Virus record (IMG/VR): IMGVR_UViG_3300014043_000231
Reading direction: 5' to 3' (one strand)
Source: an uncultured virus (IMG/VR IMGVR_UViG_3300014043_000231)
Taxonomy: Duplodnaviria; Heunggongvirae; Uroviricota; Caudoviricetes
Length of the DNA stretch: 64,000 nucleotides
Part shown: positions 5,533-43,744 of the stretch, in pieces
Numbering within the stretch: position 1 is the first letter of the stretch
Layout: each line of letters opens with the position of its first letter
The notes under the pieces: generated by a model
What the model was told of the DNA's origin: nothing
Seen by the model: only the letters and a program-made list of their open reading frames with translations
Database searches by the model: none
Made by a program: the position numbers and the translations under genes

Positions 5533-5547
5533 GATAACATGATATCA

Positions 5548-6960: not shown

Positions 6961-7036
6961 GCTATTTCAATCATATGATATCAAAAAATGGGAACAGTGA
7001 AACCGTTCCCATTAATGATTAGAATTCAACCGATTA

Positions 7037-8116: not shown

Positions 8117-8158
8117 TTAACTCCAATCTGAAAAATAATTAATGTTAACAATCAAATA

Positions 8159-8726: not shown

Positions 8727-11120
8727 TTATCTACTTATAGGATTGATTTTCTGGACTTTTGCCATGATTGGTTTCAAATCATCAGGTGTCAGGGTTTCCT
8801 TATCCAACAGCAATCCGGCAAGTTCATCCAGCACGCTCCTGTTCAATGTCAATGCGTTCACTGCATTCATATGAGCACACGAAATAATATTACGAGTTTC
8901 AACATCAATGTCATGCAATGTTTCATCAGATAATGGCAGCTGGTTCGCATCGGAACGATCAAACGTCCATACGCCAATACCGAGCTTATCGTTGAAACCA
9001 TACTTAGTGATGATATCACGCGCAAGGGAAGTTGCCTTATCAATGTCATTGGATGGACCCGTGGATACATCCTTGAAAACAAGTTCCTCCGCAGCCCATC
9101 CGCCGAGCATGTAATTCAACTGGCCGAATAATTGCGAACGAGTGTAATTCGTCCTGTCATCATCACTGTTGATTGCAGTGTAACCGAGAGCATGCGCACG
9201 AGGCAGAATCGTAATCTTATTCACCGGATCAGCACCAGGTGTCGCCATTGCAGCCAATGCGTGACCGGCTTCATGATACGCGGTAAGACGCAAGGTTTTC
9301 TTATAATCCTCCCTGCTTGTTTTCTTCGGACCCATGAGAGTGCGATCAATGCCTTCACTGATGTCATCAATGGTAACAGCATCCCTTCCCTCACGGACAG
9401 CCATGAGCGCAGCCTCATTCATCACATTAGCCAATTGAGCGCCACTGAAACCGGAAGTGTTCTGTGCAGCCCAGTGCAAATCAGCATCGTTCTGCAATGT
9501 TTTACCGCGAGCATGGATACGCAGAATGGCTTCACGTCCAGCCATATCCGGTAAATCAACTCCAATCTGCCTGTCAAAACGCCCCGGACGAGTCAATGCT
9601 TTATCCAGAATGTCAGGACGGTTCGTGGAAGCGAGAACAATAATGTCTCCATTGCCTTCAAAACCATCCATCTCAACAAGCAGCTGATTCAATGTCTGTT
9701 CACGTTCACTATTACCATCTGAACGATTCCCACGCGCTGAACCAATGGCGTCCAATTCGTCCAGGTAGATAATATTTTTACCCCCATTTTTCTTTGCTTG
9801 CTCGAACAAATTACGCACTCTTTTCGCGCCTAGTCCTGCGAACACCTCTATCAGGTTTGAAGCCGCACAATAATAGAACCCGGCGTTCACTTCCCCGGCG
9901 AGCGCTTTCGCAAGCAGTGTCTTACCGGTTCCGGGCGGACCATACAGCAACACGCCTTTCGGCAGTTTCGCTCCGATAGCCTCATATTTTTCCGGGTTCG
10001 CAAGCATATCCTTGATTTCCTTGAGTTCAATGAGCGCAGTGTCCTCACCGGCAACATCATTGAATGTTACATCAGGCTTATCGGATTTCGCCTTATCATC
10101 ATCCTTGCCTATGCCTCCCATGCCGCCAATGAGTCCATCCTGACTCCTCATAATCCAAATGAACAAACCGACTATGATGAAAGTCGGAAGCAATCCGGTG
10201 ATGAGATTCGTAATTGTGTTACTACGATAACCGATCACCTCATAACCTTTAGCATATTTGCTTTTATCCAATATTTTACCGAGATTCTCGCGTTGTCCGA
10301 CTGACCATCCGAAAACGACTTTCTTACCTACTTGTTCATTATCGCTTTTACGAGTGTAATCATTTTTGAGTTCAATGAGCACTGTTTGCGCCGTATCCTG
10401 AACGGTTGCTTTCTCAACTGCCTTATTGTCTTTCAACAAGGCGAAACCTTCATTCGATGGGATTTCCGCTGGCTTCGATCCTTTCTGAAAACCTGTGATA
10501 ATGCATAGTATCGCAAGCACTGCAACCAGTACTGCTATCCATGCGTGCAATGGTTTCTTGAACCATTCAGTCAGTTTATCCATTAGTGATTTCTTATCAT
10601 CTTTTTTGTCGGAATCCTGTTTTTTATCCTGTTCATCCTGCCATTTGTTTTCAACTGTTTGCAATGTCGCCAATGCTTTACGATACTTATCCAATCTGCG
10701 TTTCTCATCCTCTGAATCACGCTGGTCGGATGGAAGCCTGTTCACATCCAGATTATTCATGATATCGGCAATTTTCACATGGCGCGCGGCTTCATTATCT
10801 TTAAGATTATCAATGTAATCCGCATAAGGCTGATGTTTCTCATGTGTGAGCAGTTGGACGCATGCTATCACATTCTCATCGAAACCATCCGCGCGCATGT
10901 CATCGGCGGTGTAACCGGTGTCTTCCATGGTGTCATGCAGCCATGCGACTGTTTTCTCAAAATCAGTGTTCACATGCTCTGCCACATATCGTGGATGCAG
11001 AATGTAATCATTGCCTCCCTTGTCTTTCTGGCCGGCATGGCGTTCGCGGGCGATTTGTTCCGCTTTCGCGAGTTGTTCCTTGCCGGTTAATGGTTTCCTG
11101 TTGCCAATGGATTCAGGCAT
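8727..11120 (-). CDS. ftsH: ATP-dependent zinc metalloprotease FtsH with N-terminal RelA/SpoT-type HD hydrolase domain
   Basis: Residues ~15-155 HAGQKDKGGNDYILHP...AWLHDTMEDT...VKIADIMNN; two TM helices; Walker A GPPGTGKT, Walker B IYLDELD, SRH TNRPDILDKALTRPGRFDR, HEAGH. Confidence 0.95.
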   Translation of the reverse strand: MPESIGNRKPLTGKEQLAKAEQIARERHAGQKDKGGNDYILHPRYVAEHVNTDFEKTVAWLHDTMEDTGYTADDMRADGFDENVIACVQLLTHEKHQPYADYIDNLKDNEAARHVKIADIMNNLDVNRLPSDQRDSEDEKRRLDKYRKALATLQTVENKWQDEQDKKQDSDKKDDKKSLMDKLTEWFKKPLHAWIAVLVAVLAILCIITGFQKGSKPAEIPSNEGFALLKDNKAVEKATVQDTAQTVLIELKNDYTRKSDNEQVGKKVVFGWSVGQRENLGKILDKSKYAKGYEVIGYRSNTITNLITGLLPTFIIVGLFIWIMRSQDGLIGGMGGIGKDDDKAKSDKPDVTFNDVAGEDTALIELKEIKDMLANPEKYEAIGAKLPKGVLLYGPPGTGKTLLAKALAGEVNAGFYYCAASNLIEVFAGLGAKRVRNLFEQAKKNGGKNIIYLDELDAIGSARGNRSDGNSEREQTLNQLLVEMDGFEGNGDIIVLASTNRPDILDKALTRPGRFDRQIGVDLPDMAGREAILRIHARGKTLQNDADLHWAAQNTSGFSGAQLANVMNEAALMAVREGRDAVTIDDISEGIDRTLMGPKKTSREDYKKTLRLTAYHEAGHALAAMATPGADPVNKITILPRAHALGYTAINSDDDRTNYTRSQLFGQLNYMLGGWAAEELVFKDVSTGPSNDIDKATSLARDIITKYGFNDKLGIGVWTFDRSDANQLPLSDETLHDIDVETRNIISCAHMNAVNALTLNRSVLDELAGLLLDKETLTPDDLKPIMAKVQKINPISR

Positions 11121-11256
11121 TAATCATCCTTTCGTCAAGATATTTTGTTTTGAACATATTATTGTTGTTTTGTTCTAATCATGAACTCAATTATATCACA
11201 TCATAGACAATTGCAATTTGTCGTAATGCCGTCATTGTCGTGATATCATATTATGT

Positions 11257-12759
11257 ATGGATAGGAATAAAGAACTTGGACAGGTTTGGACACCAGATTG
11301 GCTTGTATGCAACATTCTTGATAATATTGGATATACTTGTGATAACCCGGCAATAATAAATAGCAAAATAATGGAGCCATCATTTGGATCGGGAGCATTT
11401 TTGATTGAAATTACGCGCCGGTTAATTGACGCATGCGAAAGATATGGAATGAAAACAAGCGACATAGAAGATACTGTTAACAGAAATATATATGGTATCG
11501 AATATGATGCAAATATTTTCATGCAAACATTACAATCATTAAAATTATTATGCTCCTCATATGGATTTAATGTTCCTTTTAATAATCTTGTAAGAATGGA
11601 CGCCCTTGACTATAATCCAGCAGTAGATTTTGATTATATTGTAGGTAATCCTCCATATGTTAAGATTCAATCATTATCAAACGATATGCGAGAAAAAATG
11701 TCAAAATTATCAGCTGCATCTGGAAATACTGATTTATATATTGCCTTTTATGATATATGCATTAATTGGCTTGAATTGGATGGTAAATTATCTTTTATAT
11801 CACCATCAGGATGGATGAAAGGAGCCTCCCAAAAATACTTTCGTGCAATGCTTTCATCAACTGAAAGCATAATAAGTATTCATGATTATTCAGATATTAG
11901 AATATTTGATGGTGTAGACACTTATACAGCGGTTCTTACATTAAGATCTCCCGTTAAGTCAATGGTAAAACATATTTCAGAATTTACATATTATCGCATG
12001 AATTCAAATAATCAAATGGCGTTTTCCACTCATGTGAAGTTTAATGATTTTAAAGACGGAAAATCATTGAGATTACTATGCCTAAATAGCAATGAAAAGA
12101 AAATACTTAAAATATGCCTTGCATCAGATTATAAAAATTCTATACAAAGCAATTTCATTGTATCAAATGGAGTTGCAACGTTATCCGACTCTGTATTTTT
12201 AATTAATGATGGCAATTTTAATAATGATTCTCTTATATATCCTGCCATTAAAGCATCGAAATACCATGGCGGAAGCATTGATGCTAAAATTATATTTCCA
12301 TATATAATGGACGCATCTGGCAGATTTAACATAATTGATGAAAATGAATTATTACGTAATCATTCATTAGTATATAATCATCTTATTACAAATAAAGACA
12401 TTTTGGAAAAACGAAAAAGAGATAAAGGAACTCAATGGTATGCTTATGGCAGAAGCCAATCAATACAGATTACCAATAAGCAAAAACTAATTATCAATCC
12501 TATTGTATCACCGGATTCAAATATATCTGCTTATATTATACCAGCTGGAACAATTATATATTCTGGTTTGGTAATCACCGAATATGATAATGGAATGCCA
12601 CTTAAAAAATTAATACCAATAATAGAGAGTAATTTATTTCATGAATATGCAATGATAGTAGGATCTCCAATGAGCGGAGGTTATAGAAGATTATCATCAC
12701 CGGATGTTAAATCATTTAATATGGATGTCATTAATAACAAACATTATTATATGTCATAA
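11257..12759 (+). CDS. N6-adenine DNA methyltransferase (gamma class, TaqI/Eco57I-like), apparently orphan
   Basis: GQVWTP, MEPSFGSGAF, IVGNPPY, DLYIAF; markedly AT-rich. Confidence 0.9.
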   Translation: MDRNKELGQVWTPDWLVCNILDNIGYTCDNPAIINSKIMEPSFGSGAFLIEITRRLIDACERYGMKTSDIEDTVNRNIYGIEYDANIFMQTLQSLKLLCSSYGFNVPFNNLVRMDALDYNPAVDFDYIVGNPPYVKIQSLSNDMREKMSKLSAASGNTDLYIAFYDICINWLELDGKLSFISPSGWMKGASQKYFRAMLSSTESIISIHDYSDIRIFDGVDTYTAVLTLRSPVKSMVKHISEFTYYRMNSNNQMAFSTHVKFNDFKDGKSLRLLCLNSNEKKILKICLASDYKNSIQSNFIVSNGVATLSDSVFLINDGNFNNDSLIYPAIKASKYHGGSIDAKIIFPYIMDASGRFNIIDENELLRNHSLVYNHLITNKDILEKRKRDKGTQWYAYGRSQSIQITNKQKLIINPIVSPDSNISAYIIPAGTIIYSGLVITEYDNGMPLKKLIPIIESNLFHEYAMIVGSPMSGGYRRLSSPDVKSFNMDVINNKHYYMS

Positions 12760-12782
12760 ATACAATTATATCATAATAAAAA

Positions 12783-12823
12783 ATAAGGCATGAAAACCGG
12801 TTTTATAAGTTTTCATGCCTTAT
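12783..12823. terminator. bidirectional terminator hairpin
   Basis: ataaggcatgaaaac...gttttcatgccttat between convergent genes. Confidence 0.7.
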
Positions 12824-12830
12824 GATTAAT

Positions 12831-13298
12831 TTAATCAATCTTCTTGATGCTTATCGCGTCATTTAACTGATTGATGAGAACATCAATGTCATCAGTGAAT
12901 CTTCCGGCATTATCGCTTTCATAGCTGATTGTGTTCAGTATGTCGCGTGGCATTTCCAATTCCATATCCTGTTTCTTATTGTCCGCATCAGTCCATGTGA
13001 AAAGGAACGCATGGATGACATTGTTCACGCCACGGACTGGTTTCATTGTCATTTCCGTTCCATCATTGAACATGGCATTGAATGTTTTATCATCCGCTTG
13101 TTTGAATCCAGTGATGTTTCCATGTGTTCCTGATGGTGTTTCCATGATGCTTTCAATGTTTTCCTGAATCCAATTGATGAGTTCAGGACGGCTCTCACGG
13201 CGTCCCGCGTCAGTGATGAGCATCGCGGCTTCACCGATTGCGGGTGGGACAGGTGATTCGCCGCGCCGTATTTCATTAATCGTGTATTTACTGGTCAT
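12831..13298 (-). CDS. hypothetical protein
   Basis: Start reassigned to ATG 13298, 7 nt after TGATAACAT -10 element. Confidence 0.65.
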   Translation of the reverse strand: MTSKYTINEIRRGESPVPPAIGEAAMLITDAGRRESRPELINWIQENIESIMETPSGTHGNITGFKQADDKTFNAMFNDGTEMTMKPVRGVNNVIHAFLFTWTDADNKKQDMELEMPRDILNTISYESDNAGRFTDDIDVLINQLNDAISIKKID

Positions 13299-13346
13299 GA
13301 TTACAATGTTATCATATTGTTCCCATGATTCCAATTCCTTCAAATG

Positions 13347-13571
13347 TTAACGGTCAATCAAATATTTCACATAAATGACTATCGCCGCGAGAACAAGAAG
13401 TATGAAACCTCCCGCATAACCGAAGAACGCCGGGATGAGCGCGATGGCGGATGTTACTCCACCAGCCCATAGCGTGCGTGTGAGTTCCTTTCGTTTGATG
13501 CATTCGTAAGTGAACCATCCGCCGAAAATCGTCAAACCAGCTATTATAACATTCAAAATTACATCAATCAT
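13347..13571 (-). CDS. small membrane protein
   Basis: 74 aa with 2-3 hydrophobic segments. Confidence 0.65.
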   Translation of the reverse strand: MIDVILNVIIAGLTIFGGWFTYECIKRKELTRTLWAGGVTSAIALIPAFFGYAGGFILLVLAAIVIYVKYLIDR

Positions 13572-13594
13572 ATTAACATGATATCATTGAACGC

Positions 13595-14338
13595 ATGGTT
13601 TCAACATCCAATAAGAATGGAAGGCATTTCAGCGGTTATTATGTGCAACCCGCATCAACCGGCAGGCATGGGAATGGCAGTATCATAATCGATGTTGATG
13701 AAACTTTATACGATAATGTTGCAACCATCGGGAAACATGCGAACAGATTCAGAGCGAATCTGATAACCGGTGCAATGTTCATCATCTCCGCGTTCATTGG
13801 AATACTGATCGCGTTGATTCCAATGATGTTCATTGGTTTGTATCGGATTCCATCACAGTCAATGATGGACACATTGCAACCCGGCGACAGGATTGTAATC
13901 AGCAGAATGTGGATGCATGATGACAATGTGAACAGAGGCGACATCATAGTGTTCCATGATCCCGGCGAATGGCTTGATGCTGGCAAGGAAGGCGAAACGC
14001 TAATCAAACGAGTCATTGGATTGCCTGGGGATACAGTGTCATCACTGGGTGATTGCAAGGTGCTTGTGAATGGTGAGATTATTGATGAGCCTTATGTCAA
14101 GGATGGTTGTTCATCGAACATTGCTTTCAATGTAACCGTGCCATCAGGTAAAGTGTTCGTCATGGGTGATAATCGCGGGAACAGCGCGGACAGCAGGTAT
14201 CATTTGAATGATGCCAATGGCGGCATGGTTCCAATTGTGAACATTATCGGTAAAACAGAAGGTGTGTTCTGGCCGTTGCATGACATGCGTTTCAATATTC
14301 GCAATGAATCCAGTGATGATTTGTGGTTCAATGAATGA
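13595..14338 (+). CDS. lepB: signal peptidase I
   Basis: TM helix, catalytic Ser IPSQSMMDTL, Lys LIKRVIGLPGD, GDNRGNSADSR. Confidence 0.93.
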   Translation: MVSTSNKNGRHFSGYYVQPASTGRHGNGSIIIDVDETLYDNVATIGKHANRFRANLITGAMFIISAFIGILIALIPMMFIGLYRIPSQSMMDTLQPGDRIVISRMWMHDDNVNRGDIIVFHDPGEWLDAGKEGETLIKRVIGLPGDTVSSLGDCKVLVNGEIIDEPYVKDGCSSNIAFNVTVPSGKVFVMGDNRGNSADSRYHLNDANGGMVPIVNIIGKTEGVFWPLHDMRFNIRNESSDDLWFNE

Positions 14339-14483
14339 AAACATTCGCAGTATAATCATTATTCATTGTAATAACATGAATCGCGATACATAAGTTTGAC
14401 TTTCAGTTGATGTTATCATTGAATTCATGTTAACATGATGATGTCAAACAAAAAACATTGGAAGATGTTGATTTACCATAAGA

Positions 14484-14906
14484 TTGGATTATTATGCTGA
14501 ACAGGCATATGGTGTGGAATTCCCTGAACTATCCGATGACGGTTGCGGGTATGTTAATGTTTACGATGTTAACAAGGCAATCAATGGTCAGGTTAAAATT
14601 ATTGGTGAATGGCGTAATCTGATTTACGCGCATGATGTCCATGCGATTAATCCGCAGGATGACATTCCATTGGAAATTGACATCACTGATAATAAAAATA
14701 AATCATTCATGGAATCAAACAATTGTCATAATGAACCATTATATTATGGGGCTTGCATTGCATGCAATGATAAGGATGATAAACCATTCTTGAAAACAAT
14801 GGCAGGCGACCTGATTGGAGAATCATTCATTTACATTGGAATTGAAATTGATGATCCTATCACTGGTTTAACTGGCGCGCAGGGGAGACTTGTGGGCGAT
14901 TGTTAG
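14484..14906 (+). CDS. hypothetical protein
   Basis: 140-aa acidic ORF, TTG start. Confidence 0.5.
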   Translation: MDYYAEQAYGVEFPELSDDGCGYVNVYDVNKAINGQVKIIGEWRNLIYAHDVHAINPQDDIPLEIDITDNKNKSFMESNNCHNEPLYYGACIACNDKDDKPFLKTMAGDLIGESFIYIGIEIDDPITGLTGAQGRLVGDC

Positions 14907-15052
14907 AAACATAATCCGGGAGCACCGGAACTCATTGAACACGAACTCTGCGATTGAATCCAATGTATGCATGATTGCATATGAAAACAGCAGAAGACAT
15001 TCTATATTCTTATGACTGCTTTCATATTCGCTATAATATAAGTTATATATTA

Positions 15053-23303: not shown

Positions 23304-23891
23304 TTAGTTCGCGCGTTTAGTCAGAATTTCATCAATCAAACCATGTTCAAGGCATTTATCCGCTGTGAGAACGGTTTCATGCTGAGTGAATGCATTGATT
23401 TCATCCAATGACAATTTAGAATGAGCGGTTAATGTTTCCTCTAGTTTACCACGCAGGCGAGTGAGTTCATCGGCATAACTTTTAATGTCAGTTGATTTCG
23501 CTCTCTGTGAACCCATTGATGGTTGACGCAGAATGACACGGGCATGTTCAAGCATCATGCGTTTCTGTCCGATTGCAAGTAGAATACTTGCGGAACCTGA
23601 TGTTTGACCGAGACATACAGTATGAACAGGGCATGAAATGTAATTGATTGTATCCGCAATCATGAACACATCATCAATGCTTCCACCGGGACTATTCAAA
23701 TACAAGGTAATTCCTGCTTTATTGTCCTTCTGTTCCAATGCGAGCAATTGCGAGGTTACATTGCCTGCTACATTATAATCAATGATATCATTAATGAAAA
23801 TAATCCTATCCTTATATAATGTGTCAAACGGATTAGTGTAATTATAACCATATGGTGTTTTTTCAGCGATTTGAGGTAAATAATTTGACAT
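23304..23891 (-). CDS. clpP: ClpP paralogue, probably catalytically inactive (ClpR-like)
   Basis: DRIIF, LYLNSPGG; nucleophile region GQTSGSA, His position RVILRQP, Asp position QHETV. Confidence 0.85.
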   Translation of the reverse strand: MSNYLPQIAEKTPYGYNYTNPFDTLYKDRIIFINDIIDYNVAGNVTSQLLALEQKDNKAGITLYLNSPGGSIDDVFMIADTINYISCPVHTVCLGQTSGSASILLAIGQKRMMLEHARVILRQPSMGSQRAKSTDIKSYADELTRLRGKLEETLTAHSKLSLDEINAFTQHETVLTADKCLEHGLIDEILTKRAN

Positions 23892-23909
23892 TTTTAATGT
23901 TAATCCTTT

Positions 23910-24236
23910 TTATTCCAAACTTTTTTTCATGGCTTCATACATGCTTATCCGATTATCATGTTCATCAGGATAATCATCATCATCGTCATCATCATCAAGA
24001 ATTGAATCGGAATTCTTAATGAAACTGACACTATCCCATGGAATGAAAACATTACCGTCATCATCAGTGATTTCAATTCCATAATCCGTGAAATCATAAT
24101 TCCCAGGTAGAGCGGGAATTACAATATTCTCATCATCCAATAATGATTTAAGGAACACTGCAATAGGGAATGTCTTATCAATGTTGGATGCAAGTCCATG
24201 TTTCCTGCGCGTAGTGGTTTTAGTAGTTTCAGCCAT
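23910..24236 (-). CDS. small acidic hypothetical protein between the clpP genes
   Basis: 108 aa with poly-Asp tract. Confidence 0.65.
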   Translation of the reverse strand: MAETTKTTTRRKHGLASNIDKTFPIAVFLKSLLDDENIVIPALPGNYDFTDYGIEITDDDGNVFIPWDSVSFIKNSDSILDDDDDDDDYPDEHDNRISMYEAMKKSLE

Positions 24237-24240
24237 ATTC

Positions 24241-24891
24241 TCATGCCTCTGTTTTCTTAACTGTCCTGTGAGAATGTGAACGCTTTGTTTTCACTGGTTT
24301 CACGCCATTCACATAATCAACAAGTTCCTGTTCAGTGTGGACAATGTGATCAACGAAACCATAATCCAATGCTTCCTGCGCATTATACCAGTGATCATAT
24401 TCATTATCTTTCAGGATTTCATCAATCGGATGTCCAGTCTGTTCAGCTGTCAATGACGCCATTTCCTGCCGCATGCTTTCAATGAGTTGCGCTTCAATGC
24501 GCGCATCGGTTTCAGTGCCGCCAACACCACCTGATGGTTGATGCATGAGCACACGGGCATGCGGCATCAGGAAACGTTTACCGGGTGTTCCACTGGACAA
24601 TAGGAACTGTCCCATTGACGCGCACATTCCAATTCCGACTGTAACAACATCATTTGAAATGAATTTCATCGCATCGTAAATTCCCATGCCATCCGTAATG
24701 GAGCCACCAGGGGACGTAATATACAGGTAAATGTCCTTATCCGGGTCCTCACCATGCAATAAAAGCAGTTTATTGATTACAATGTTAGCAGTGGTTTCAT
24801 TCACTTCCTTATTCAACCAGATTATCCGGTTTTTCATAAGACGGTCTTCCAATGGCGTGATTGTTTTAATATTATCAATGTTATCGGTCAT
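24241..24891 (-). CDS. clpP: ATP-dependent Clp protease proteolytic subunit
   Basis: YITSPGGS, GMCASMGQFLL (Ser), RVLMHQP (His), EYDHW (Asp). Confidence 0.95.
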   Translation of the reverse strand: MTDNIDNIKTITPLEDRLMKNRIIWLNKEVNETTANIVINKLLLLHGEDPDKDIYLYITSPGGSITDGMGIYDAMKFISNDVVTVGIGMCASMGQFLLSSGTPGKRFLMPHARVLMHQPSGGVGGTETDARIEAQLIESMRQEMASLTAEQTGHPIDEILKDNEYDHWYNAQEALDYGFVDHIVHTEQELVDYVNGVKPVKTKRSHSHRTVKKTEA

Positions 24892-24997
24892 ATGAACAAT
24901 GATAGCATGATAATCCGGAACCCGCAAATCATGATAAGGAAACGAGCCGGAAGTTTTAGCGCTTCCGGCTCATGAGATAGGAAAAACATATGGACAA

Positions 24998-26140: not shown

Positions 26141-26253
26141 CGTTCCATTCCTTTCAATTATACTGGCATTTCACTGGAATCAGCGTATTTCGCATCCCTC
26201 CGTGCCATCTGCTTACAATGTTATCACATGAACACAGGGGAATCAAACAGATA

Positions 26254-31492: not shown

Positions 31493-33370
31493 TCAGTCCT
31501 CATTCTGTTTGCCATGCAGTTCAGACAGGAATTTCGCATCAAGCATGGCTTCTGGCGTGGTTGAATAAGCCTGATGACGGGCGTTGTTACCGCGTTTCAT
31601 CTGAGGCAGGACAACGCTTCCATCCTTCTGCTTCTTAGCATGCTTCTCACCATACTGCTTCTGATAACGGCTCTGTGCGAGCATGGTTTCACCGTTTTCC
31701 TCGCGATAGTTATTCACGAGCGTCATTGTTTTCTTCGGGAATGCATCCTTGCCGAAATACAGCAAACGTGCTTGCAATGCGACGTTCCCACGGTCGCCGT
31801 TCGAGCCATAAAGCTCGCTGATTATAGCATCTGCTTGCTTACGTGGGCTGAATCTTCCGTTCTCATCAATGAAATTCTTCTTATTGGACAGTTTATCGGT
31901 TATCATCTTATTATACTTGTTGTATTCACGACGATTATAATTCCTGCGTGCGATGTCCTCCTTTGAGTTTCGTTTCATTTTAGCATGAACCGGCTGGTTC
32001 TTTGAATTCAATCTGAAACCAGCTGCTTTCAATTGAGCGACAGTCGCGCCTTTCGGCATTGCCTGCGGAGCCGCTTTCCTGTCAGCCATCTCATACAGGT
32101 ATTCGCCTTTGCCATTACCGGTGCTTGTTCGCCAATTCGGGCGTGTCTTATTGCCTGCTTTTCCTTGCGGCGCACTGATGTTCTTAGCGAAACTCGTCGC
32201 AAGACGAGCGGTTTCATTACCATAAAATTCAGCCGGTTCGCCATTCTTCTTATGACCGACATTGAAATTATTCGCGAACCACATTCCGTTGTTCTCATTG
32301 ATTCCGCCTGCATACGCTGCACGTATGAATTCCTGCGGATGATTCTCCAGAAGATCCTTATATACTTTCTTCTTATGCGCATCAATGGCTTTCCTGCGTG
32401 CATCAGGAGATAATCCTTCCAATGCCTGATTGGATGGGCGCGTATTCCTCATATAGGATGCAAGACGGGCAGGAGGAGCGTAAAGAATGGCAGGATCGGA
32501 TGCCTTGAACATTTCACGTTGGCGTCTCGGTGACAGTTTATCCCATGCTTGTTTTTTCAAATATGTCTGCATTGTTTTCGGCATGTCGCCAGTCGTGTAT
32601 TTCTTATACAAGCGATTCAAACGCTGGTATTCCTTATCTGAATGCTTCACGCCTTGTGCATCCATTGCATCCATTTTCGCTTTAACATCAGCCGCATCCT
32701 GTTCATGCTGTTTATGATATATCGCATTGAAATCGACTTTATCATGCATTATATCCAATGCATTCTGATTCAATGCCGCGACTTCCTTCTTGTTGCGTTC
32801 AGCGTATTTCGAACGATTACGCTGTTCACGGCGTTCCGCTTCCAAATTCAATTGAGCTTTCGCAAGTTCCTTAGCCGTGGGCTCATGCTCGTAACCATAC
32901 ATTTCATGAGCGCGTGCATATACTTTCTCATAAGAATCATTGGAAGTGTCAACAAGATACATCGCGTCATTATCGCTCATCGCATCCACATGCTTATCAA
33001 TGGCTGCATCGATTGCAGTGGATACAGTCGCGAAATCAGTATCCTTCATTTTCGCGTTCGGATTGATTCCTTCGACACCAGCGAGCGCTTTATTGAACGC
33101 TTGCGCAGTTTCATTATCATCCTGTGAATAATACATTGACGCGACTGTTTTGTTATCAATGCGTTCAGTGTAATCATCCATGCTTTCCGTTGTCATGCCA
33201 TGAGCGTTGCCAGCATATAAGGTTTCATTCAATAACTGCTGCTTTTCAATGTAAGCATCGACTTCCTTTTCACTGCCATGGAATTCACCGACAGGGCAAT
33301 GACCTGGACGAGCATGGCAAGTCCCTTTCTTACCGGTATTCCTGTTAACATGGAATCTTCCTTCGGCCAT
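31493..33370 (-). CDS. hypothetical protein with N-terminal H..CHAR..CP..H tag and basic C-terminal half
   Basis: MAEGRFHVNRNTGKKGTCHARPGHCPVGEFH; strong GGAAGGA RBS. Confidence 0.85.
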   Translation of the reverse strand: MAEGRFHVNRNTGKKGTCHARPGHCPVGEFHGSEKEVDAYIEKQQLLNETLYAGNAHGMTTESMDDYTERIDNKTVASMYYSQDDNETAQAFNKALAGVEGINPNAKMKDTDFATVSTAIDAAIDKHVDAMSDNDAMYLVDTSNDSYEKVYARAHEMYGYEHEPTAKELAKAQLNLEAERREQRNRSKYAERNKKEVAALNQNALDIMHDKVDFNAIYHKQHEQDAADVKAKMDAMDAQGVKHSDKEYQRLNRLYKKYTTGDMPKTMQTYLKKQAWDKLSPRRQREMFKASDPAILYAPPARLASYMRNTRPSNQALEGLSPDARRKAIDAHKKKVYKDLLENHPQEFIRAAYAGGINENNGMWFANNFNVGHKKNGEPAEFYGNETARLATSFAKNISAPQGKAGNKTRPNWRTSTGNGKGEYLYEMADRKAAPQAMPKGATVAQLKAAGFRLNSKNQPVHAKMKRNSKEDIARRNYNRREYNKYNKMITDKLSNKKNFIDENGRFSPRKQADAIISELYGSNGDRGNVALQARLLYFGKDAFPKKTMTLVNNYREENGETMLAQSRYQKQYGEKHAKKQKDGSVVLPQMKRGNNARHQAYSTTPEAMLDAKFLSELHGKQNED

Positions 33371-33433
33371 AATATTTTCCTTCCATAATATTTAATTCAT
33401 TATGTTCAATCAAATAATATCTATCTGAAAATT

Positions 33434-33472
33434 ATGGCAGGAACCAGCAATTAAACATTCGGTTCCTGCCAT
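33434..33472 (-). terminator. terminator hairpin downstream of mini-array
   Basis: atggcaggaacc...ggttcctgccat followed by U-rich tract on the minus strand. Confidence 0.65.
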
Positions 33473-33506
33473 TAAGGAAGAAAAAATGAATGGAATATCA
33501 ATTCGC

Positions 33507-33608
33507 GGTTTCATTCCCCTAACGGGGAAACAACTAATCACATTTCCTTTTCATTGATTCGCCATTAATGGTTTCATTCCCCTAGCAGGGAAACAACACT
33601 TGTAAAAC
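33507..33608 (-). CRISPR. Cas-less CRISPR-like mini-array (2 repeats)
   Basis: 28-nt cores ggtttcattcccctaacggggaaacaac (33507-33534) and ggtttcattcccctagcagggaaacaac (33570-33597), 35 nt apart; minus strand reads GTTTTACAAGTGTTGTTTCCCTGCTAGGGGAATGAAAC. Confidence 0.6.
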
Positions 33609-33627
33609 CATATCAAATCAACGAATC

Positions 33628-34557
33628 TCATTGCGCACCGACAGTTCCAGTTGAACCATGTGTGGTTCCAGTTCCATCATCAGTGTTCGCGCTGCATGCA
33701 CCTGAATGCGCCTGTTTAGCCATTTCATTGGATTCCTCATCCGGAACATACGCGAGTGGCGTTTTAACATTACCTGTATTATTAAATGAATTCACATTCG
33801 CGCCATAATATAACACGGCATAACTGTTCGCAATGGCTTCAGTCCGTCCTTTCGCGATGTCCGGATCAGTTGTCCTGCAATGCTGATCAATTGCACGATG
33901 AGCCAATTCATGCTTCACACTATCAATGAGCACACCGTTCTTAGCGAATGCTTCATAATCCTGATGTGATTCATTCACATAAATGATATCCGGTGTCGTG
34001 GAACAATAAATAGCGACTGTACTGGATGATGCCGTTCCTTCACATGGAATGCCATTCAGATTCCATTTGATTTCAGCGCCTGCAAGTTTCACGATTTCAT
34101 TCGCAGCGTTCCTGTAAGTTCCATCTGAACCGATTTCCGGTTTATAATCTGTTATTTGTCGTTCAACATCCGATAAACCATTCGCATTATTATTTGCATC
34201 CGTGTTTCCATTGGATGAATCCGTTGGTTCACCGGACGGTTCGGTTTTATCAGTGGTTTTCTTATCTGTGCCATCAGCTGCTTCCTTCTTATTTTTATCT
34301 GCTGAATCAGGTTTCTTCTCATTATCAGTGTAATCGCCAATCATGAATGATGTCCATGGGAATGTGATTTCCATGCCTCCTTTTGTTTTCATGATTCCAC
34401 TTGCAGTCAAACCGGCGTATACACCATAAACAAGCAGGCAGAACACGATGCTGTTCACAATGAATTTGAATAATACTTTCAAAATAAAATGATTCTTCTG
34501 CTTGCCTTTATTCGCATATGGATCATACAAGTCAAATGAACCCTTATTCCTTGCCAT
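33628..34557 (-). CDS. membrane-anchored putative zinc metallopeptidase
   Basis: N-terminal TM; KHELAH (HExxH) plus downstream TEAIAN. Confidence 0.65.
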   Translation of the reverse strand: MARNKGSFDLYDPYANKGKQKNHFILKVLFKFIVNSIVFCLLVYGVYAGLTASGIMKTKGGMEITFPWTSFMIGDYTDNEKKPDSADKNKKEAADGTDKKTTDKTEPSGEPTDSSNGNTDANNNANGLSDVERQITDYKPEIGSDGTYRNAANEIVKLAGAEIKWNLNGIPCEGTASSSTVAIYCSTTPDIIYVNESHQDYEAFAKNGVLIDSVKHELAHRAIDQHCRTTDPDIAKGRTEAIANSYAVLYYGANVNSFNNTGNVKTPLAYVPDEESNEMAKQAHSGACSANTDDGTGTTHGSTGTVGAQ

Positions 34558-34692
34558 ATTTTAACCTCACAGAATTATGTTAATATGTTTGAATGCAATG
34601 ATAGCATGCTGATTACATGCACCAAACATTAAATAATATCATATAAACATGCGCAATTGAAATCGTCAATGAAATATGTTATCATTGCATGC

Positions 34693-35463
34693 ATGAGGAA
34701 CATCACTATCATTAACGGCGCGGGAATCAGCGTGAACGCCGGAATCAGCGCGTTCCGTGGAACAACCGGCGCATGGACAACGGAACCTGATGTGCGCAAT
34801 GCATTCAATTTGAATGTGTTCATGACGAAACCAAAAGCACGGGCACTATTATGGGATTGGCTTGCGCATTCGCCTGCATGGAACGCGGAGCCGACTATCG
34901 CTCATCAGGAAATCAAACGGTTGAATGATAATAAAGCGCTGCTGGGCGTGTTCACGCAGAATTTCGATGGGTTGGAAGCGAAAACCGGATTGGACACGGA
35001 TAGGATTCATTATCTGCATGGGAACATGCTTACAAGTTCCTGTCAACGCTGCGGCAGGAAATATGATACACGCGCATTATGTGATAATATGGTTAATGAA
35101 CCGGAACCACATTGCCATGCGTGGAATGAGAAGAAATGGAATAAACGCACGCAATCATATGGTAAGGAATGCGGCGGCATCATCAAACCTGACATAGTGT
35201 TTTTCGGTGAAAATCTTGAGAAGCATGTCATCAATGCGTTCAATGAATGCCTGACATGGACGGATGAACTATGGGTTATCGGTTCCAGTTTGCAAGTGTT
35301 TCCAGTTGCGGACATGCCGAAACAAGCATTACTGTTGAATAAGACTGTCCGCATTGTGAACATGAGCGCGACACCATATGATAGGAATCCGCGCGTGGAT
35401 TGCATTCATGAGGACATTGATGCTGCGCTTCCAGGAATGGTGGATAGAGCGCTCACGGATTGA
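34693..35463 (+). CDS. cobB: Sir2-family NAD-dependent deacylase
   Basis: GAGISVNAGISAFRG, TQNFDGL, HGN, CxxC, KPDIVFFGE, IGSSLQVFP; promoter TTGAAA-N17-TATCAT. Confidence 0.92.
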   Translation: MRNITIINGAGISVNAGISAFRGTTGAWTTEPDVRNAFNLNVFMTKPKARALLWDWLAHSPAWNAEPTIAHQEIKRLNDNKALLGVFTQNFDGLEAKTGLDTDRIHYLHGNMLTSSCQRCGRKYDTRALCDNMVNEPEPHCHAWNEKKWNKRTQSYGKECGGIIKPDIVFFGENLEKHVINAFNECLTWTDELWVIGSSLQVFPVADMPKQALLLNKTVRIVNMSATPYDRNPRVDCIHEDIDAALPGMVDRALTD

Positions 35464-35583: not shown

Positions 35584-36711
35584 TCAGTTGAATGCACAGC
35601 GCGCGTCCTTTTCAACGATACATTTCTGATTCACGGCATCCTGAACCGCATTATACCTGTCACCGAGCAGTTTTACACGCTCGTTACCATTCGCATATTT
35701 GCCTTCAATGACTTCCTCAACAATAACGTTAATGGCCCTGATGTCATGTCCTTGCGCATCTAATACCGGTTTATCAGCTTGCGCTGTTTGTTTCGCGGAT
35801 TTCTTCTTAGCTTCTTCCAGTGCTTTCTGTTCATCATATGCGCACACTGAAAGCAGGTTCTCATCCTGTGAAACACGGACTGTTATCGCATTCTGTTTAT
35901 CGGTGTGAACGTTATCACCGTACGTGTTCGGCATGAGCGCACAAATATCATCTTTCTGTGAATACACTCCATATGAATTGCATTTCCGTTCCGCCGCGTC
36001 AACATCATAACCCGATGTTTTCATGCAATCATTGATATCAGCCGCTTTCTTATTCGCTATCGTGATCATGTCCTTGTAATCGAACCGCATTTTATACCAT
36101 GAAGCTGATGGAATGTCCACAGTGAATTCATTGCCATCATCATTCTTCCGCATGTTCTGGGTGACGGTGACTGGATTCCCGTTCTCATCCGGATAAATCG
36201 CTGTCAATAAACCATTGCTGTCATAATACCATCCGAAACCGCATTCATCATATTTCTCCTTGAACATGCGGTTTGCGTTATAATTATATTCCTTAGCGCA
36301 ATTATTAATGTCCTTCAATTGTTTATATTGATTCACGCTATTCATTATCAGTTGCATGTCCGGCGTCGGATACTGTTGTTTACCATTCTCATCCTTCAAC
36401 GATACTGATTCAGGGCCGAAACAATCATAATAAATACCTGATTTCTTGCCACCATTCGTCGGTTTGCAAACATTCTTATTCCTGTCCGCTTTACCGAATT
36501 CCGCATTAACCGGGGAATCATTCTTGCCTGCATTGTTCCCATTGGATGCATCATTTCCTGTTGATGCCGGTTTGATGAAAGCCATAACCTTGCCAATCAT
36601 GGAATTCGCATCGATTTTATCCTGATATGCATTCACGACGAACCATGCGCCGAAACCGAGCGCGGCGGCAGTGATGATTGCAATGAATAATGTAAGAAGA
36701 TTCTTCCTCAT
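35584..36711 (-). CDS. exported protein with C-terminal CW_7 (Cpl-7) cell-wall-binding repeat
   Basis: Signal/TM at N-terminus; IVEEVIEGKYANGNERVKLLGDRYNAVQDAVN. Confidence 0.75.
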   Translation of the reverse strand: MRKNLLTLFIAIITAAALGFGAWFVVNAYQDKIDANSMIGKVMAFIKPASTGNDASNGNNAGKNDSPVNAEFGKADRNKNVCKPTNGGKKSGIYYDCFGPESVSLKDENGKQQYPTPDMQLIMNSVNQYKQLKDINNCAKEYNYNANRMFKEKYDECGFGWYYDSNGLLTAIYPDENGNPVTVTQNMRKNDDGNEFTVDIPSASWYKMRFDYKDMITIANKKAADINDCMKTSGYDVDAAERKCNSYGVYSQKDDICALMPNTYGDNVHTDKQNAITVRVSQDENLLSVCAYDEQKALEEAKKKSAKQTAQADKPVLDAQGHDIRAINVIVEEVIEGKYANGNERVKLLGDRYNAVQDAVNQKCIVEKDARCAFN

Positions 36712-37107
36712 AAAATGAGAATATCAATATGAGTTATGCATTCATTGTAAACATAAATAATGATCATGAATGGAAAATGAATGCTTTTATTATCGGAGCC
36801 CATGAATAATATGTAATCAATGTTCACATGATGACAGCAGTGTTATCATCTCCGAATGGCGAACAGGAACCATCCTTCTCATGTGCTTCCGGGTGCGACG
36901 CATACACGAGAACATCATGATACTTATCCATTATGATGATTGATGGTGTCATTGTTTCCAATGAACGCAACCGTTCCTTTTCATTACGGTGTTCCTGATT
37001 GTTTAAAAGATCATGCTTATCTATCGAACCAATAAATTTGCATTATGTAAGAATATGAATAATGAGGACATTGCATGCAATGCCCCCATCATAATGTCAT
37101 CATGTGC

Positions 37108-37390
37108 TCACAGTGTAATAAATGCTTGCACTTTTGCTTCCAATTCGTCAATATGATCCGCTATCTCATACGGAACGGTAATTTCACCAGATGCAAGCAT
37201 GCGTTCACCTTTGCTATCAGCCGCTTTCGTAATTTTAATGATATGTCGCCAATAATCCACGGTTAGGATAGCCGCATCCAATGGATCATAATCAGCGAAC
37301 AATCGTGCGCATTTCCAATCATAAGCATTATCAACATAACGAGCTGGAATCACATACGCTGGTACGCGCGATTTTTCAATCAATGCTTGA
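37108..37390 (-). pseudogene. probable 5'-truncated hypothetical gene next to IS end
   Basis: Protein-like reading frame whose 5' end runs into the IS left-end remnant. Confidence 0.35.
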
Positions 37391-37450
37391 CCAAATCTGC
37401 CGCTTAACCATATGCTTGAAAGCAGGCAGTTAATCGGCAGGATAATAAGC
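37387..37450 (+). mobile_element. degenerate IS200/IS605 left-end remnant
   Basis: ttgac|caaatctgccgc...tgcttgaaagcagg...cggcag...ataagc shared with 54323-54391. Confidence 0.6.
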
Positions 37451-37500
37451 AAATTGTGAAAATAATGTGAAAGCAGCATTAAAAGTTTATAATCATGTAA

Positions 37501-38430
37501 TCAGTCCATGACACATAGGAATTCATGCGCGGGTTTCGCAGTGAATGACCCATCATCATGTTTCTTCCTGCGTCCAGCAGTGTAAGTGATATCGAAATCA
37601 TGGAATGCAGCCATTGGAAGCAAATCTTTGAAAAATGAATCATCATCCTCCGTCCTATTGGACATCATTATGATATTACCAGCATCATGCATTGTAATCA
37701 TCCATTCGCATAATGCTTTCTGATCCTCATCATTGAAACCAGTTCCATAAGTAGTGAACGAATGACGATAAGGAGGATCCAAATAAATCAATGCTTTACC
37801 TGACTGCATGGATTCAGTGTTCACATCAGTATATGAACCAGTATGGATTTCCGTGTGCTGTAATGCATCATGCCAACCTGTCAACATGCTCTCATCGAAT
37901 AATTGTTTCACATTGGTTTGATTCAATAAACCAGCTGGCGTTGCGAACAAACCATTCGCTTCAACGCATGATTGCCAGATTCCATTGAAACCAGTGCGCA
38001 TGAGAATGAACAGCATTGCGCTGCGTTCCCATGTATCCATGGAATCATGTTGCATCCAATATCTCTTCCGGAAATCATAATACCATGTTTTCCTATTTTC
38101 TTTTCCATCCAATGCAAGCATTTCATCCGCATATTGTTTACATGCACTCATGAAATCATTCACTTTATCGGATTTAACTACTGCCAGTAATTCCATGAGT
38201 TCGGTGTTAACATCATTAACCGCATATAATAAATCATTATTATACAGATTCCACATGTCAGCATATAATGCGCCGCCGCCGAAAAACGGTTCTACATATT
38301 CCATAATATGGTTATGTTTCCGCATGATGGTATTGATTATCGGACGATAATATTTTAATAATCGTGTTTTACCGCCCGCCCACATGTAAAATGGTTTCAG
38401 TTTAATGTCATTATCATCAAATGTACTCAT
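37501..38430 (-). CDS. dam: Dam-like (D12 class) adenine methyltransferase
   Basis: KPFYMWAGGK, YVEPFFGGGA, NDVN, YLDPPY, MSN. Confidence 0.92.
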   Translation of the reverse strand: MSTFDDNDIKLKPFYMWAGGKTRLLKYYRPIINTIMRKHNHIMEYVEPFFGGGALYADMWNLYNNDLLYAVNDVNTELMELLAVVKSDKVNDFMSACKQYADEMLALDGKENRKTWYYDFRKRYWMQHDSMDTWERSAMLFILMRTGFNGIWQSCVEANGLFATPAGLLNQTNVKQLFDESMLTGWHDALQHTEIHTGSYTDVNTESMQSGKALIYLDPPYRHSFTTYGTGFNDEDQKALCEWMITMHDAGNIIMMSNRTEDDDSFFKDLLPMAAFHDFDITYTAGRRKKHDDGSFTAKPAHEFLCVMD

Positions 38431-38510
38431 ACATACAATTATATCAATCACATGCAGGCGATGAACGCGCTTATCAATATATTGATTTAATCATTGAATA
38501 ATGATTCTGG

Positions 38511-39134
38511 CTATTCATAATCCCATCCGACTGCTTTCAATGCATCATCAAGTATTGAATATATTTCTTTTCGCAAATCATTCTCCGTCATATGATTGAA
38601 ACGCCTGAATGACACTACATCAGTATAATCAGTATCCCATATGGAATCAATTGGAAGTTTCAAACTGACGACTTTATTACCGAGAATCCGTTCAGCAGTA
38701 TTCCCATCATAAAATCCATCACCATAGCAGAATGTCAAATAATGCTTGCATCCCAATGCCTGCAATTGATCATAATTCTTATACCAGCGTTCAATCGCAT
38801 TGCCATTCTTGCCTTGTTTCTTGCTTTCAACTGCAAGCAATGGCTTACCATTCTTATCAAGGAATATTCCGCCATCAGGACTTAAACCAGTACATTCAAT
38901 TTTTGAATCTGTACACACAGCATTCCTGTATTCTTCTTCTGAATAACCTTTACGCCAGAATTTATTATCACAAGTGAATGATAATTCATTACGAACATAA
39001 TCCAATGGAATTCTATCCAATGTTTTTGCTTCTTTATCAAATGCAGTAGTTCCAGTTTTTATACCGCCATTGAAACAACCTGTTCTCTGTGATTTCCTAT
39101 TATTTACTTTCATGTTAGTTTTTGTTGCCGCCAT
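38511..39134 (-). CDS. EcoRI-family-like restriction endonuclease
   Basis: SPDGGIF...AVESKKQG..GNAIER..KN...YLTFCYG.GF matches the EcoRI catalytic and recognition pattern. Confidence 0.8.
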   Translation of the reverse strand: MAATKTNMKVNNRKSQRTGCFNGGIKTGTTAFDKEAKTLDRIPLDYVRNELSFTCDNKFWRKGYSEEEYRNAVCTDSKIECTGLSPDGGIFLDKNGKPLLAVESKKQGKNGNAIERWYKNYDQLQALGCKHYLTFCYGDGFYDGNTAERILGNKVVSLKLPIDSIWDTDYTDVVSFRRFNHMTENDLRKEIYSILDDALKAVGWDYE

Positions 39135-39222
39135 GCACGCAATGATAGCATGTGAAATCATAACATGCAAATAAAAGCATTATTTTAACATAATCAATGG
39201 ACATCTGATTATAATGGAAACA

Positions 39223-41497: not shown

Positions 41498-41997
41498 TAT
41501 GCGAGCCGTGCTTTCACTGTTTTGCTGACAGCGCTCATATCCACAAGCAGATTCTTATAATCATCCGTTCTGATGATTCCGCGAACAGCGCTCATGACTG
41601 TTCCCATGTCCCGGATAGTTGACGCGCCAGTTTCCTTGATGGCAGTGTCCACAATGCCGTCAATTTGTTCCTGTGATGCGCTTGCAGGCAGATACTTACG
41701 TAAAACATCAGCCTCATTGCGTTCAATGAGTGCATGAGCACGAGCACGTTCAACCGCATCCTTATCAGCTGTGATTTCACCGTTCACAATGCGTTCATAT
41801 TCCGCCGCGTTTGTTTCACGTTCCTTAACCGCTTTACTGATGATTGCAATGATGACATTATCATCATTCACATTCTTGCCGTCGATTCGCGCGTTATCAA
41901 TGACAGCGAGAACTGAACGCAATACTGTTTTCAATTCATCATCATGTGATTTCATCGCGGTTTTCAAATCAGCTTTAATCATGTCAAATAGTGCCAT
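41497..41997 (-). CDS. yqeY: GatB/YqeY domain protein
   Basis: IKADLKTAMKS...LRSV...E..VLRKYLP...GASTIRDMGTVM. Confidence 0.9.
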   Translation of the reverse strand: MALFDMIKADLKTAMKSHDDELKTVLRSVLAVIDNARIDGKNVNDDNVIIAIISKAVKERETNAAEYERIVNGEITADKDAVERARAHALIERNEADVLRKYLPASASQEQIDGIVDTAIKETGASTIRDMGTVMSAVRGIIRTDDYKNLLVDMSAVSKTVKARLA

Positions 41998-42174
41998 CTT
42001 CTATTTTCCTTTCAAAAAATCAATGTTATATTCTCATATTAACATATGCACGCATGATTTGTCAAACAAAATTTCATGGAAATAAAAAGAGAATGAATCC
42101 ATGGATGCAGCGAGTTCATTCCCGTTTGCTTTAATATGATATGGAAGCATTCATCTGATGAACGAGAGATATTT

Positions 42175-42369
42175 TTAATTTTTCAATGATTTAATTGCCT
42201 GTTCAGCGAATTCGGATGTTCTCATGATTTCAATGATATCATCCGGCGTGAAACGAGAGTATCCCTGCGATGATTTTGACGCGAACATTAGGTTATAATC
42301 ATGAGCCGCGATAGTAGCGCAGATTATGCCATTATCATTCTTCATATGATAACATGAGATGCGGGGCAA
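42175..42369 (-). CDS. small hypothetical protein
   Basis: 64-aa ORF; start uncertain. Confidence 0.4.
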   Translation of the reverse strand: MPRISCYHMKNDNGIICATIAAHDYNLMFASKSSQGYSRFTPDDIIEIMRTSEFAEQAIKSLKN

Positions 42370-43446: not shown

Positions 43447-43480
43447 TGCATATCATCGCTTAATCATAATATCAATGATA

Positions 43481-43744
43481 TCACATGATACCGAAAATGG
43501 AACTGAGATACCACACGCCCGCCGTAAGCATGAAAGCACCGATGGCAGCGGAACCAGTCGCGCCGAGTGCAAGCAACCATCTGGAATACCATTTGATATC
43601 CCTGAATTCAGGATCCGCAATCGCGGCAACTGCGATCTTACCGAAATACAGAACGGAACAGGCACCGGCAAGAATACCAATGGCGGCAAGCGGAACAAGA
43701 ATCAACATGCTTAAAAACTGCATTTCCAATCGAACCTTTCTCAT
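43481..43744 (-). CDS. small membrane protein
   Basis: Two hydrophobic helices. Confidence 0.6.
   Translation of the reverse strand: MRKVRLEMQFLSMLILVPLAAIGILAGACSVLYFGKIAVAAIADPEFRDIKWYSRWLLALGATGSAAIGAFMLTAGVWYLSSIFGIM

Follow-up and report, generated by a model that had tools for sequence, protein, structure and literature searches.

A two-repeat CRISPR locus on an uncultured viral contig shares its repeat with a type I-E system carried by sister strains

The 64,000-nt stretch of the uncultured virus record IMGVR_UViG_3300014043_000231 analyzed here (the window) carries, in a 257-nt gap separating two minus-strand open reading frames (ORFs; genes A and B, Table 1), a pair of 28-nt repeats that raises two questions: is this a CRISPR array, and, if it is, which CRISPR-associated (Cas) proteins would it work with in a window that encodes none of class 1? 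A first-pass annotation, made from the sequence alone, had read the locus as a type III-like mini-array that borrows the host's Cas proteins to make two CRISPR RNA (crRNA)-like products. The repeats, R1 and R2, are identical at 26 of 28 positions and start 63 nt apart, with 35 nt between them, as had been described; when up to three mismatches were allowed, the repeat matched the window at these two places only (R1 with none, R2 with two), and 0/100 shuffled windows contained two matches. As RNA, both form a 6-bp hairpin, UUCCC(C/U)-N4-GGGGAA, and the minus strand, on which the annotation had placed it, gives the stronger folds (-9.2 and -11.2 kcal/mol, versus -5.8 and -9.3 kcal/mol on the plus strand). 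R2 differs from R1 by a C-to-T change in the stem, which preserves pairing on the minus strand only, as a G-U pair, together with a GCUA loop, and both repeats keep an intact hairpin and 3' handle.

A scan of metagenome contigs for the repeat returned 14 loci, two of which (L056 and L060) were unrelated single matches and were set aside. The other 12, from nine contigs because L052, L053, L058 and L059 are pieces of one contig, have one and the same 27-nt core, GTTGTTTCCCCGTTAGGGGAATGAAAC, with T or C after it, and the first 27 nt of R1 equal this consensus core with no differences. The repeat forms arrays of nine (L052/L053), seven (L049), six (L050), five (L051 and L055), four (L047) and two (L048) repeats, and L052 has an additional second array of two. 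The regular arrays, those of five to nine repeats, keep a 62-nt period, and 30 of the 31 distinct sister spacers are 35 nt long when counted from the 27-nt core, the remaining one being 23 nt. Since the contigs span four record prefixes (UMDI, UMDH, REGX and Ga0326512), an assembly artefact is unlikely to account for these arrays. L047, L048, L052, L053 and L054 share 96-99% identity with the window in stretches of 0.4-10 kb and, judged by this identity, are sister strains of the window's element. The call of a CRISPR mini-array on the minus strand is thus borne out by sister arrays with the same core: a similar CRISPR repeat family exists, and it is found in metagenome contigs of close relatives.

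Upstream of every full array stands a conserved ~120-nt leader with TTGACA-17-TGATATCAT; its end, which abuts the first repeat, is a near-perfect palindrome, AACCCTTGTAAAA-N5-(G)TTTTACAAGGGTT (for example, L049:9950-9997). The leaders lie 5' of the sister arrays in the minus sense, which, together with the stronger hairpins of that strand, gives the direction of the window array as minus. The motif TGATANCATTG, found in the leaders as their -10 region, has 15 copies in the window where 0.97 would be expected, and several of them stand directly upstream of ORFs (the sites include 13579-13589, 26216-26226, 42231-42241 and 43473-43483). It is probably the element's own promoter consensus, and its occurrence both in the leaders and upstream of window ORFs suggests that the arrays are driven by the element's own promoter type. 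On the minus strand of the L047 locus, at ~5353-5403, the 'spacer' of one array unit measures 23 nt; ahead of the following repeat stands TATTTATAAGG, similar to the leader end GTTTTACAAGG, which gives the impression of two fused arrays. The L057 repeat (~10001-10027) is solitary and leaderless and lies between two tRNA genes.

The sister contigs also identify the CRISPR type. At L052:5381-14463, nine minus-strand ORFs encode Cas3, Cse1, Cse2, Cas7e, Cas5e, Cas6e, Cas1e and Cas2e in the operon order cas3-cse1-cse2-cas7-cas5-cas6e-cas1-cas2, on a segment of ~10 kb that stands in place of window 36737-39140, and L047 has cas3-cse1-cse2 of the same operon. Eight of the nine ORFs match Cas families of Pfam, namely Cas3 (HD, helicase and C-terminal domains), Cse1, Cse2, Cas7 (CT1975), Cas5, Cas6e (CRISPR_assoc), Cas1 and Cas2, and all nine match type I-E models of NCBIfam, with six reaching the curated cut-off (Cas2e, Cas6e, Cas5e, Cas7e, Cse2 and the Cas3 core) and Cas1e, Cse1 and full-length Cas3 falling below it. 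Two arrays flank the operon, the nine-repeat array with its leader after cas2 and the two-repeat array with its leader upstream of cas3, reading away from it. The repeat of the window array belongs to the type I-E system carried by sister strains. The type III-like label has to be given up, as the repeat flanks a type I-E operon in L052 and none of the nine ORFs of that cas locus gave a match to Cas10, Csm or Cmr; the wider assignment to a Cas6-processed class 1 kind stands. In the window itself, the stem-loop repeats, their conserved 3' end and the 35-nt spacing are those of type I-E direct repeats, and a single spacer without a class 1 cas gene makes the locus a mini-array; multi-unit arrays beside type I-E cas genes are found in the sister contigs, not in the window. 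Outside the lineage, no protein exceeds 40% identity to Cas7e of the sister strain, and the cas genes are therefore no recent loan from a host, being instead the element's own and long diverged. In L052, cas1e (5728-6688, minus strand) is split into ORFs of 211 and 100 aa in different frames, which may be a real frameshift, one that would impair spacer uptake, or an assembly error.

Some spacers of this system are directed at the window. Three of the 31 sister spacers (sp03 of L047, sp04 of L048 and sp26 of L052) match it at 35/35 positions and, since these matches are perfect, the strains target each other. A further case comes from the public metagenome run X14, in which a 119-nt contig fuses the repeat to window 34124-34158, within gene A, with no mismatch; the segment is spacer-like, although one repeat letter at the junction is non-canonical, which makes the case slightly less clean. 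The targets of the three sister spacers and of the X14 segment are all preceded by GA (4/4), for which we estimate from base composition a chance of ~1e-5, and their first matching base is T or C. In sister arrays the last repeat base is likewise T or C and matches the target, and the variable base thus originates from the target; the corresponding base before spacer S1 of the window, the 28th of R2, is C. In L052 itself, the sp26 target has lost 3 nt, in frame, from its first bases, as expected for avoidance of self-targeting. For 3/3 sister spacers with a known array position, the target lies within, or 117 nt beside, the segment that is replaced by the array or the cas cassette: the sp04 target is inside 41540-42218, a 679-bp segment replaced by this mini-array in L048, and the sp26 target is 117 nt from the junction of its array. 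Of the mobile-element and inter-element conflict proposed at first pass, the carrier is probably a mobile element and the spacers of relatives do target its strains, but no target was found for S1. At L048:480-648, a leader-repeat-spacer-repeat cassette displaces the 679 bp, which hold most of a YqeY-like gene; its left junction lies in a promoter-motif stretch common to the leader and the window, and this hints at recombination between promoter copies as a route of array movement.

Table 1. Features of the window discussed in the text, in window coordinates.
Feature	Positions	Strand	Description
Repeat R2	33570-33597	-	GTTGTTTCCCTGCTAGGGGAATGAAACC; adjoins the leader remnant; Rfam CRISPR-DR18 at 17.1 bits, E 1.6, minus strand
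Repeat R1	33507-33534	-	GTTGTTTCCCCGTTAGGGGAATGAAACC; Rfam CRISPR-DR18 at 18.4 bits, E 0.83
Spacer S1	33535-33569	-	35 nt, ATTAATGG...GTGATTA in RNA sense
Leader remnant	33598-33609	-	GGTTTTACAAGT; last 12 nt of the ~120-nt sister leader (nine upstream regions aligned)
Trailer	33473-33506	-	Strain-variable, without a closing repeat
Terminator-like hairpin	33427-33472	-	12-bp stem, 15-nt loop, then AAUUUUC
Gene A (upstream ORF)	33628-34557	-	309 aa; no Pfam or PHROG family
Gene B (downstream ORF)	31493-33370	-	625 aa, orphan; no Pfam or PHROG family
Strain-variable cassette	36737-39140	.	Three minus-strand ORFs including a Dam-type methyltransferase; site of the cas operon in L052
Target of L047 spacer sp03	37557-37591		Inside the methyltransferase cassette at the cas site
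Target of L048 spacer sp04	41623-41657	+	35/35, preceded by GA; sole spacer of its mini-array
Target of L052 spacer sp26	36585-36619	-	35/35, preceded by GA

Next to R2, the window retains just the 3' arm of the leader palindrome, and the single repeat of L052 at the same site likewise shares only the final 12 leader nt. Position 33598 is the canonical G (RNA sense) in runs X15, X16, X4 and X14, and the leader end reads GGTTTTACAAGT/G. The 38-nt repeat of the first-pass annotation is present on the minus strand, but its first 11 nt (GTTTTACAAGT) are conserved leader bases, and it therefore consists of 11 nt of leader and 27 nt of a repeat that is 28 nt long; the second copy appeared to have a divergent 5' part because that part is the spacer. 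The leader remnant is met on its 5' side by the end of the 309-aa ORF, the stop codon of gene A being 18 nt away, and transcription of the array would therefore be read-through. On the other side of R1, the segment once counted as a second spacer is a trailer: it is ~10 nt shorter in L052 and absent in L054, and in runs X14 and X15 positions 33450-33506 are swapped for 24 other letters. One canonical crRNA is accordingly expected rather than the two that had been proposed. What had been read as a terminator after the second copy is an inverted repeat (33434-33445/33461-33472) that is perfect over 12 bp and folds at -22.4 kcal/mol (z -5.8); the hairpin was not listed by a consensus terminator scan because the loop limit of that scan is 8.

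The stretch occurs in public runs of metagenomes from bovine and other guts (20 rows, 13 studies), one of which may be where the window came from, and contigs of runs X4 and X14 (DNA) and X15 and X16 (RNA libraries) were aligned over 32400-34600. A 2.4-kb contig of X4, which belongs to another study, runs over 33408-34600 without a gap; its only differences in the array region are at 33501 and 33598, with no change listed in 33507-33597 and 16 differences across the flanking 1.2 kb. The two-repeat form with S1 therefore exists in a sample of another study, although the constancy of R1-S1-R2 is weak evidence, as about one difference is expected in 91 nt. The repeat number at this site is one in L052, two in the window and X4, and at least one in L054, X14 and X15, whose contigs end within a repeat; the trailers differ in all strains. 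In X15, 80 contigs aligned and the repeat bins were full of short contigs with differing flanks, so that the repeat occurs in many contexts in these samples; the summed depth at the repeat bin (449.8 versus ~7 beside it in X15, 39 versus 7.3 in X14) pools all repeat-bearing contigs and measures neither copy number nor expression. Inverted short contigs arise in the runs because the leaders end in a palindrome, and the parts of gene A left uncovered in X15 and X16 are not evidence.

How the locus might work can be outlined from these parts. A read-through transcript from gene A would be stopped at the 33434-33472 hairpin, and Cas6e, by analogy with the E. coli enzyme, would cut each repeat at the 3' base of its hairpin, after position 20. 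The predicted product is one 63-nt crRNA, from ~33577 to 33515, composed of a 5' handle (AUGAAACC), the 35-nt S1 guide (33569-33535) and a 3' hairpin, and the RNA beyond the second repeat, which has no closing hairpin, would be trailer and no second guide. Cascade and Cas3 would have to act in trans, supplied by a cas operon outside the window or by a co-infecting sister strain, and the guide would serve in competition between related elements.

On balance, we think that the locus as a whole is probably a type I-E mini-array of the minus strand, genuine though an orphan. Its true membership of this I-E array family is very likely; continued guide function in this strain we propose only tentatively. 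Several results weigh against this explanation. None of the nine sister Cas proteins found a match in the window by tblastn, PADLOC recognized no class 1 Cas protein among 72 window ORFs (its matches were a split TnpB/Cas12f-like ORF at 13-1223 and methyltransferases, nothing else), and the cassette at the cas site holds a methyltransferase and no cas gene; for class 1, then, the absence of cas genes that the first-pass annotation had reported from the window holds. The array has no leader promoter, just the final 12 of ~120 nt being present: a 40-nt leader probe had no match in the window at up to three mismatches, no copy of TGATANCATTG lies near the array, and promoter-like sites in 33200-34700 are not enriched (6 versus 5.3 in shuffles), with none adjacent. 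Mismatches between R1 and R2 at two positions are at odds with a recent duplication during spacer uptake. The run comparisons rest on assembled contigs, which carry no RNA ends or strand. At gathering scores no Rfam family was reached in the window; at permissive scores CRISPR direct-repeat families made up three of the five top matches listed, all on the minus strand (CRISPR-DR18 at 18.4 and 17.1 bits, DR36 at 14.1 bits), but the best DR18 (RF01331) score falls far short of its 50-bit gathering threshold, and the alignment is limited to the 3' 22 repeat positions, that is, the hairpin and the 3' end. Finally, the search of phage, viral and host sequences for S1 yielded no target: none of at least 20 nt in the sister loci, cas cassette included, none in viral_contigs (IMG/VR) or genome_contigs, and only chance-level partial matches in 50,697 phage records, the best being 20/35 exact (E 0.1) and 88% over 25 nt (E 4).

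These absences would also suit a decaying relic, in which the cas cassette has been lost and a leaderless two-repeat remnant is carried without function, and this is the strongest of the alternatives, though we judge it unlikely. It would account for a window of 64 kb without cas genes in which another cassette has taken the cas site, for the missing leader and promoter, for the R2 stem mutation, for a trailer that is different in every strain seen and for the failure to find an S1 target in the sister loci, phage records, viral_contigs or genome_contigs; the split cas1 (211 + 100 aa) in the sole sister contig covering that gene points the same way. Decay is harder to reconcile with two hairpins and two 3' handles that are all intact, the stem change being compensated by the G-U pair, or with the retention of a repeat at this site by L052, which has the cas genes, and, more weakly, with an R1-S1-R2 unit that is unchanged in the independent run X4 despite the 16 flanking differences.

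A more elaborate form of the mini-array explanation, which we regard as improbable, is that S1 is a free-rider guide loaded into the Cascade of a co-infecting sister, and that the scattered leader-repeat modules act as allele-specific drives; once the rival allele had been cut, repair templated by the genome with the array would propagate that array or the cas cassette.

Quite improbable, too, is an RNA anti-CRISPR (Racr) decoy, whose repeats would tie up the Cas6e and Cas7e of the sisters in dead-end complexes. A decoy would make sense for a strain that has no cas genes and is perfectly targeted by at least four spacers of the sister system, and phage-borne repeat mimics inhibit several CRISPR types, I-E among those tested (Camara-Wilpert et al. 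2023, PMC10651486). The window locus resembles the CRISPR repeat copies in viral genomes treated there in being free of cas genes, but the Racr candidates of the passages cited are solitary repeats behind a strong promoter, whereas the window has a full repeat-spacer-repeat unit with no predicted promoter of its own; RacrIF1 extended by a repeat and a spacer, the layout seen here, gave a functional crRNA (PMC10651486). The repeat that L052 keeps at the same site, in a strain with cas genes, also speaks against a decoy.

The loan of Cas proteins from the bacterial host, the reading of the first-pass annotation, now looks very unlikely. Type I-E systems are said to be frequent in Bifidobacteriaceae, the family that holds the nearest named relatives of a window ClpP protein. 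Yet a pattern covering both repeat variants matched 0 contigs in genome_contigs (185,579 species), and the matching Cas proteins belong to the sister strains and are as diverged as the Cas7e identities above indicate; the pattern had no match in IMG/VR either, nor did 33300-33700 show DNA similarity to phage records or plasmids. A looser repeat pattern gave 46 single matches in genome_contigs, none with the 5' half of the repeat, and two of them (L013, Leptolyngbyaceae; L044, Roseiflexus) lie in arrays of other repeat families, with only the hairpin and the 3' end in common. A cyanobacterial link was dropped after the runs with the stretch proved to be bovine gut. The precedent for such a loan is the mini-arrays of Sulfolobales viruses, which carry host-type repeats (PMC6858448, PMC11656645). 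A non-CRISPR origin, with the copies as a pair of palindromic operators for a protein or as tandem hairpins of RNA in the intergenic gap, has in its favour the short palindrome in each repeat and a distance of ~6 helical turns between the copies, but it is hardly credible, being contradicted by the same 27-nt core in arrays of up to nine units, with unique 35-nt spacers, beside cas genes in the sister contigs.

The sister system can be compared with type I-E of E. coli K-12, in which the last repeat base is variable and matches the base beside the target, and the target-side motif is AAG. Both have the same gene set and order, with an array after cas2, a repeat of 28-29 nt with a GC-rich hairpin followed by ~8 nt, and a period of 61-62 nt. 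They differ in the target-side motif, which here is GA followed by T or C (4/4), in the handle, predicted here as AUGAAACY, and in Cas7e, whose distance from all relatives outside the lineage was given above; moreover, several small arrays are scattered over the genome here behind the element's own promoter motif.

The window locus would join two known kinds, virus-borne mini-arrays and huge-phage CRISPR. The mini-arrays of the Saccharolobus portogloboviruses SPV1 and SPV2 are intergenic, with one or two spacers and no cas genes alongside; close strains in one habitat carry mutual spacers, their own copy of the target being mutated or deleted, the targets lie close to the arrays, a closeness left unexplained in the passages cited, and leaderless stand-alone repeats occur (Medvedeva et al. 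2019, PMC6858448). Sulfolobales mini-arrays are also reviewed in PMC11656645. Mutual targeting, a mutated self-copy, targets near arrays and leaderless single repeats are all seen in the window lineage. Unlike the SPV arrays as described in that text, which have leaders and use host repeats with host Cas proteins, the window array is leaderless, belongs to the type I-E system of the element's own sister strains and has a host-identical repeat in none of the 185,579 species genomes; the SPV viruses also belong to the archaeal domain and to another CRISPR type, versus bacterial type I-E here. Huge phages have many tRNAs and compact arrays with spacers against related phages, and some have arrays without interference genes, while 'almost all' of their systems lack Cas1, Cas2 and Cas4 (Al-Shayeb et al. 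2020, PMC7162821). The present lineage is similar: its element is large, has many tRNAs and compact arrays, and directs spacers at relatives; the lineage departs from the cited description in that a sister strain has cas1 (split in the assembly) and cas2, and in that the cas operon is a present-or-absent cassette among strains 97-99% identical.

The wider interest of the locus lies in the surrounding population-level picture rather than in the mini-array alone: a rumen element population whose near-identical strains either carry or lack a complete, long-diverged type I-E system as a cassette, and in which spacers, flanking motif and escape mutations form a record of fighting between sister strains. 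It offers a bacterial-side counterpart to the mini-arrays of archaeal viruses, a compact I-E candidate system whose GA(T/C) motif is defined, and a test case both for the role of an orphan guide in a strain without cas genes and for the reason why targets lie so close to arrays. A limited full-text literature search found no paper on such a rumen element, which is not proof that it is unpublished.

As to the carrier, it is likely to be a huge phage or a similar large mobile element, and probably a large rumen element that is a huge phage of Actinomycetota. Its window genes include two HNH/DUF4379 endonucleases, two RNA ligases, a polynucleotide kinase-phosphatase, a CobS-like ATPase with a DUF7192 partner, cell-wall hydrolases and several methyltransferases, and most ORFs are orphans. 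Relatives of the RNA ligase occur in 334 phage records, the best in large phages, and the Cas7e of another lineage member (89% identical) sits on a contig of 216,612 nt. L057 has 32 tRNA genes in 15 kb (1-15000) with GIY-YIG and HNH genes interspersed, its shared DNA with the window being limited to short repeat segments of 87-92% identity; L051 has four ORFs with ADP-ribosyltransferase domains, and L049 a tail-lysozyme domain. Phage identity, as opposed to that of another large element, is inferred, and here the profile matches, which contain no capsid, portal or terminase, and the lack of IMG/VR relatives for the two proteins tried count against it; the DUF7192 protein had no tblastn match among phage records. 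Two adjacent ClpP genes lie at 23304-24927 on the minus strand. The nearest named relatives of the second are from Bifidobacteriaceae (62-69% identity), a kinship that suggests an actinobacterial host, and other ClpP relatives (66-75%) come from contigs as long as 641,083 nt; together these relatives may give a clue to the host and to giant elements akin to this one.

Of the genes that border the array, gene A contains at 33644-33685 a tandem 21-nt duplication, one copy of which is missing in X14, an in-frame length polymorphism of seven codons. Gene B has a promoter-like site of its own, TTGATT-17-TATTAT, at 33413-33385; its 625-aa protein has no relatives in viral_contigs or genome_contigs, and among 5.8 billion proteins its own 98% cluster is the sole match. 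We regarded a 43-aa ORF (33410-33541, minus strand), which overlaps R1 and the trailer, as spurious.

Elsewhere in the window, the TnpB/Cas12f-like ORF at 13-1223 (plus strand) runs in two frames, 13-711 and 705-1223, and matches the PHROG 'transposase' and the PADLOC Cas12f/Cas12u models. Copies of its 3' part, 92-94% identical, are found at L051:15321-15652 and L057:13879-14250, so an IS200/605-type element is probably spreading in the lineage. At 8727-11120 on the minus strand lies a gene for a 797-aa FtsH-like protease, of which the first ~177 residues match phrog_990 (metal-dependent phosphohydrolase) and whose best match among phage records is from Microcystis phage MaAM05, at 46.7% identity.

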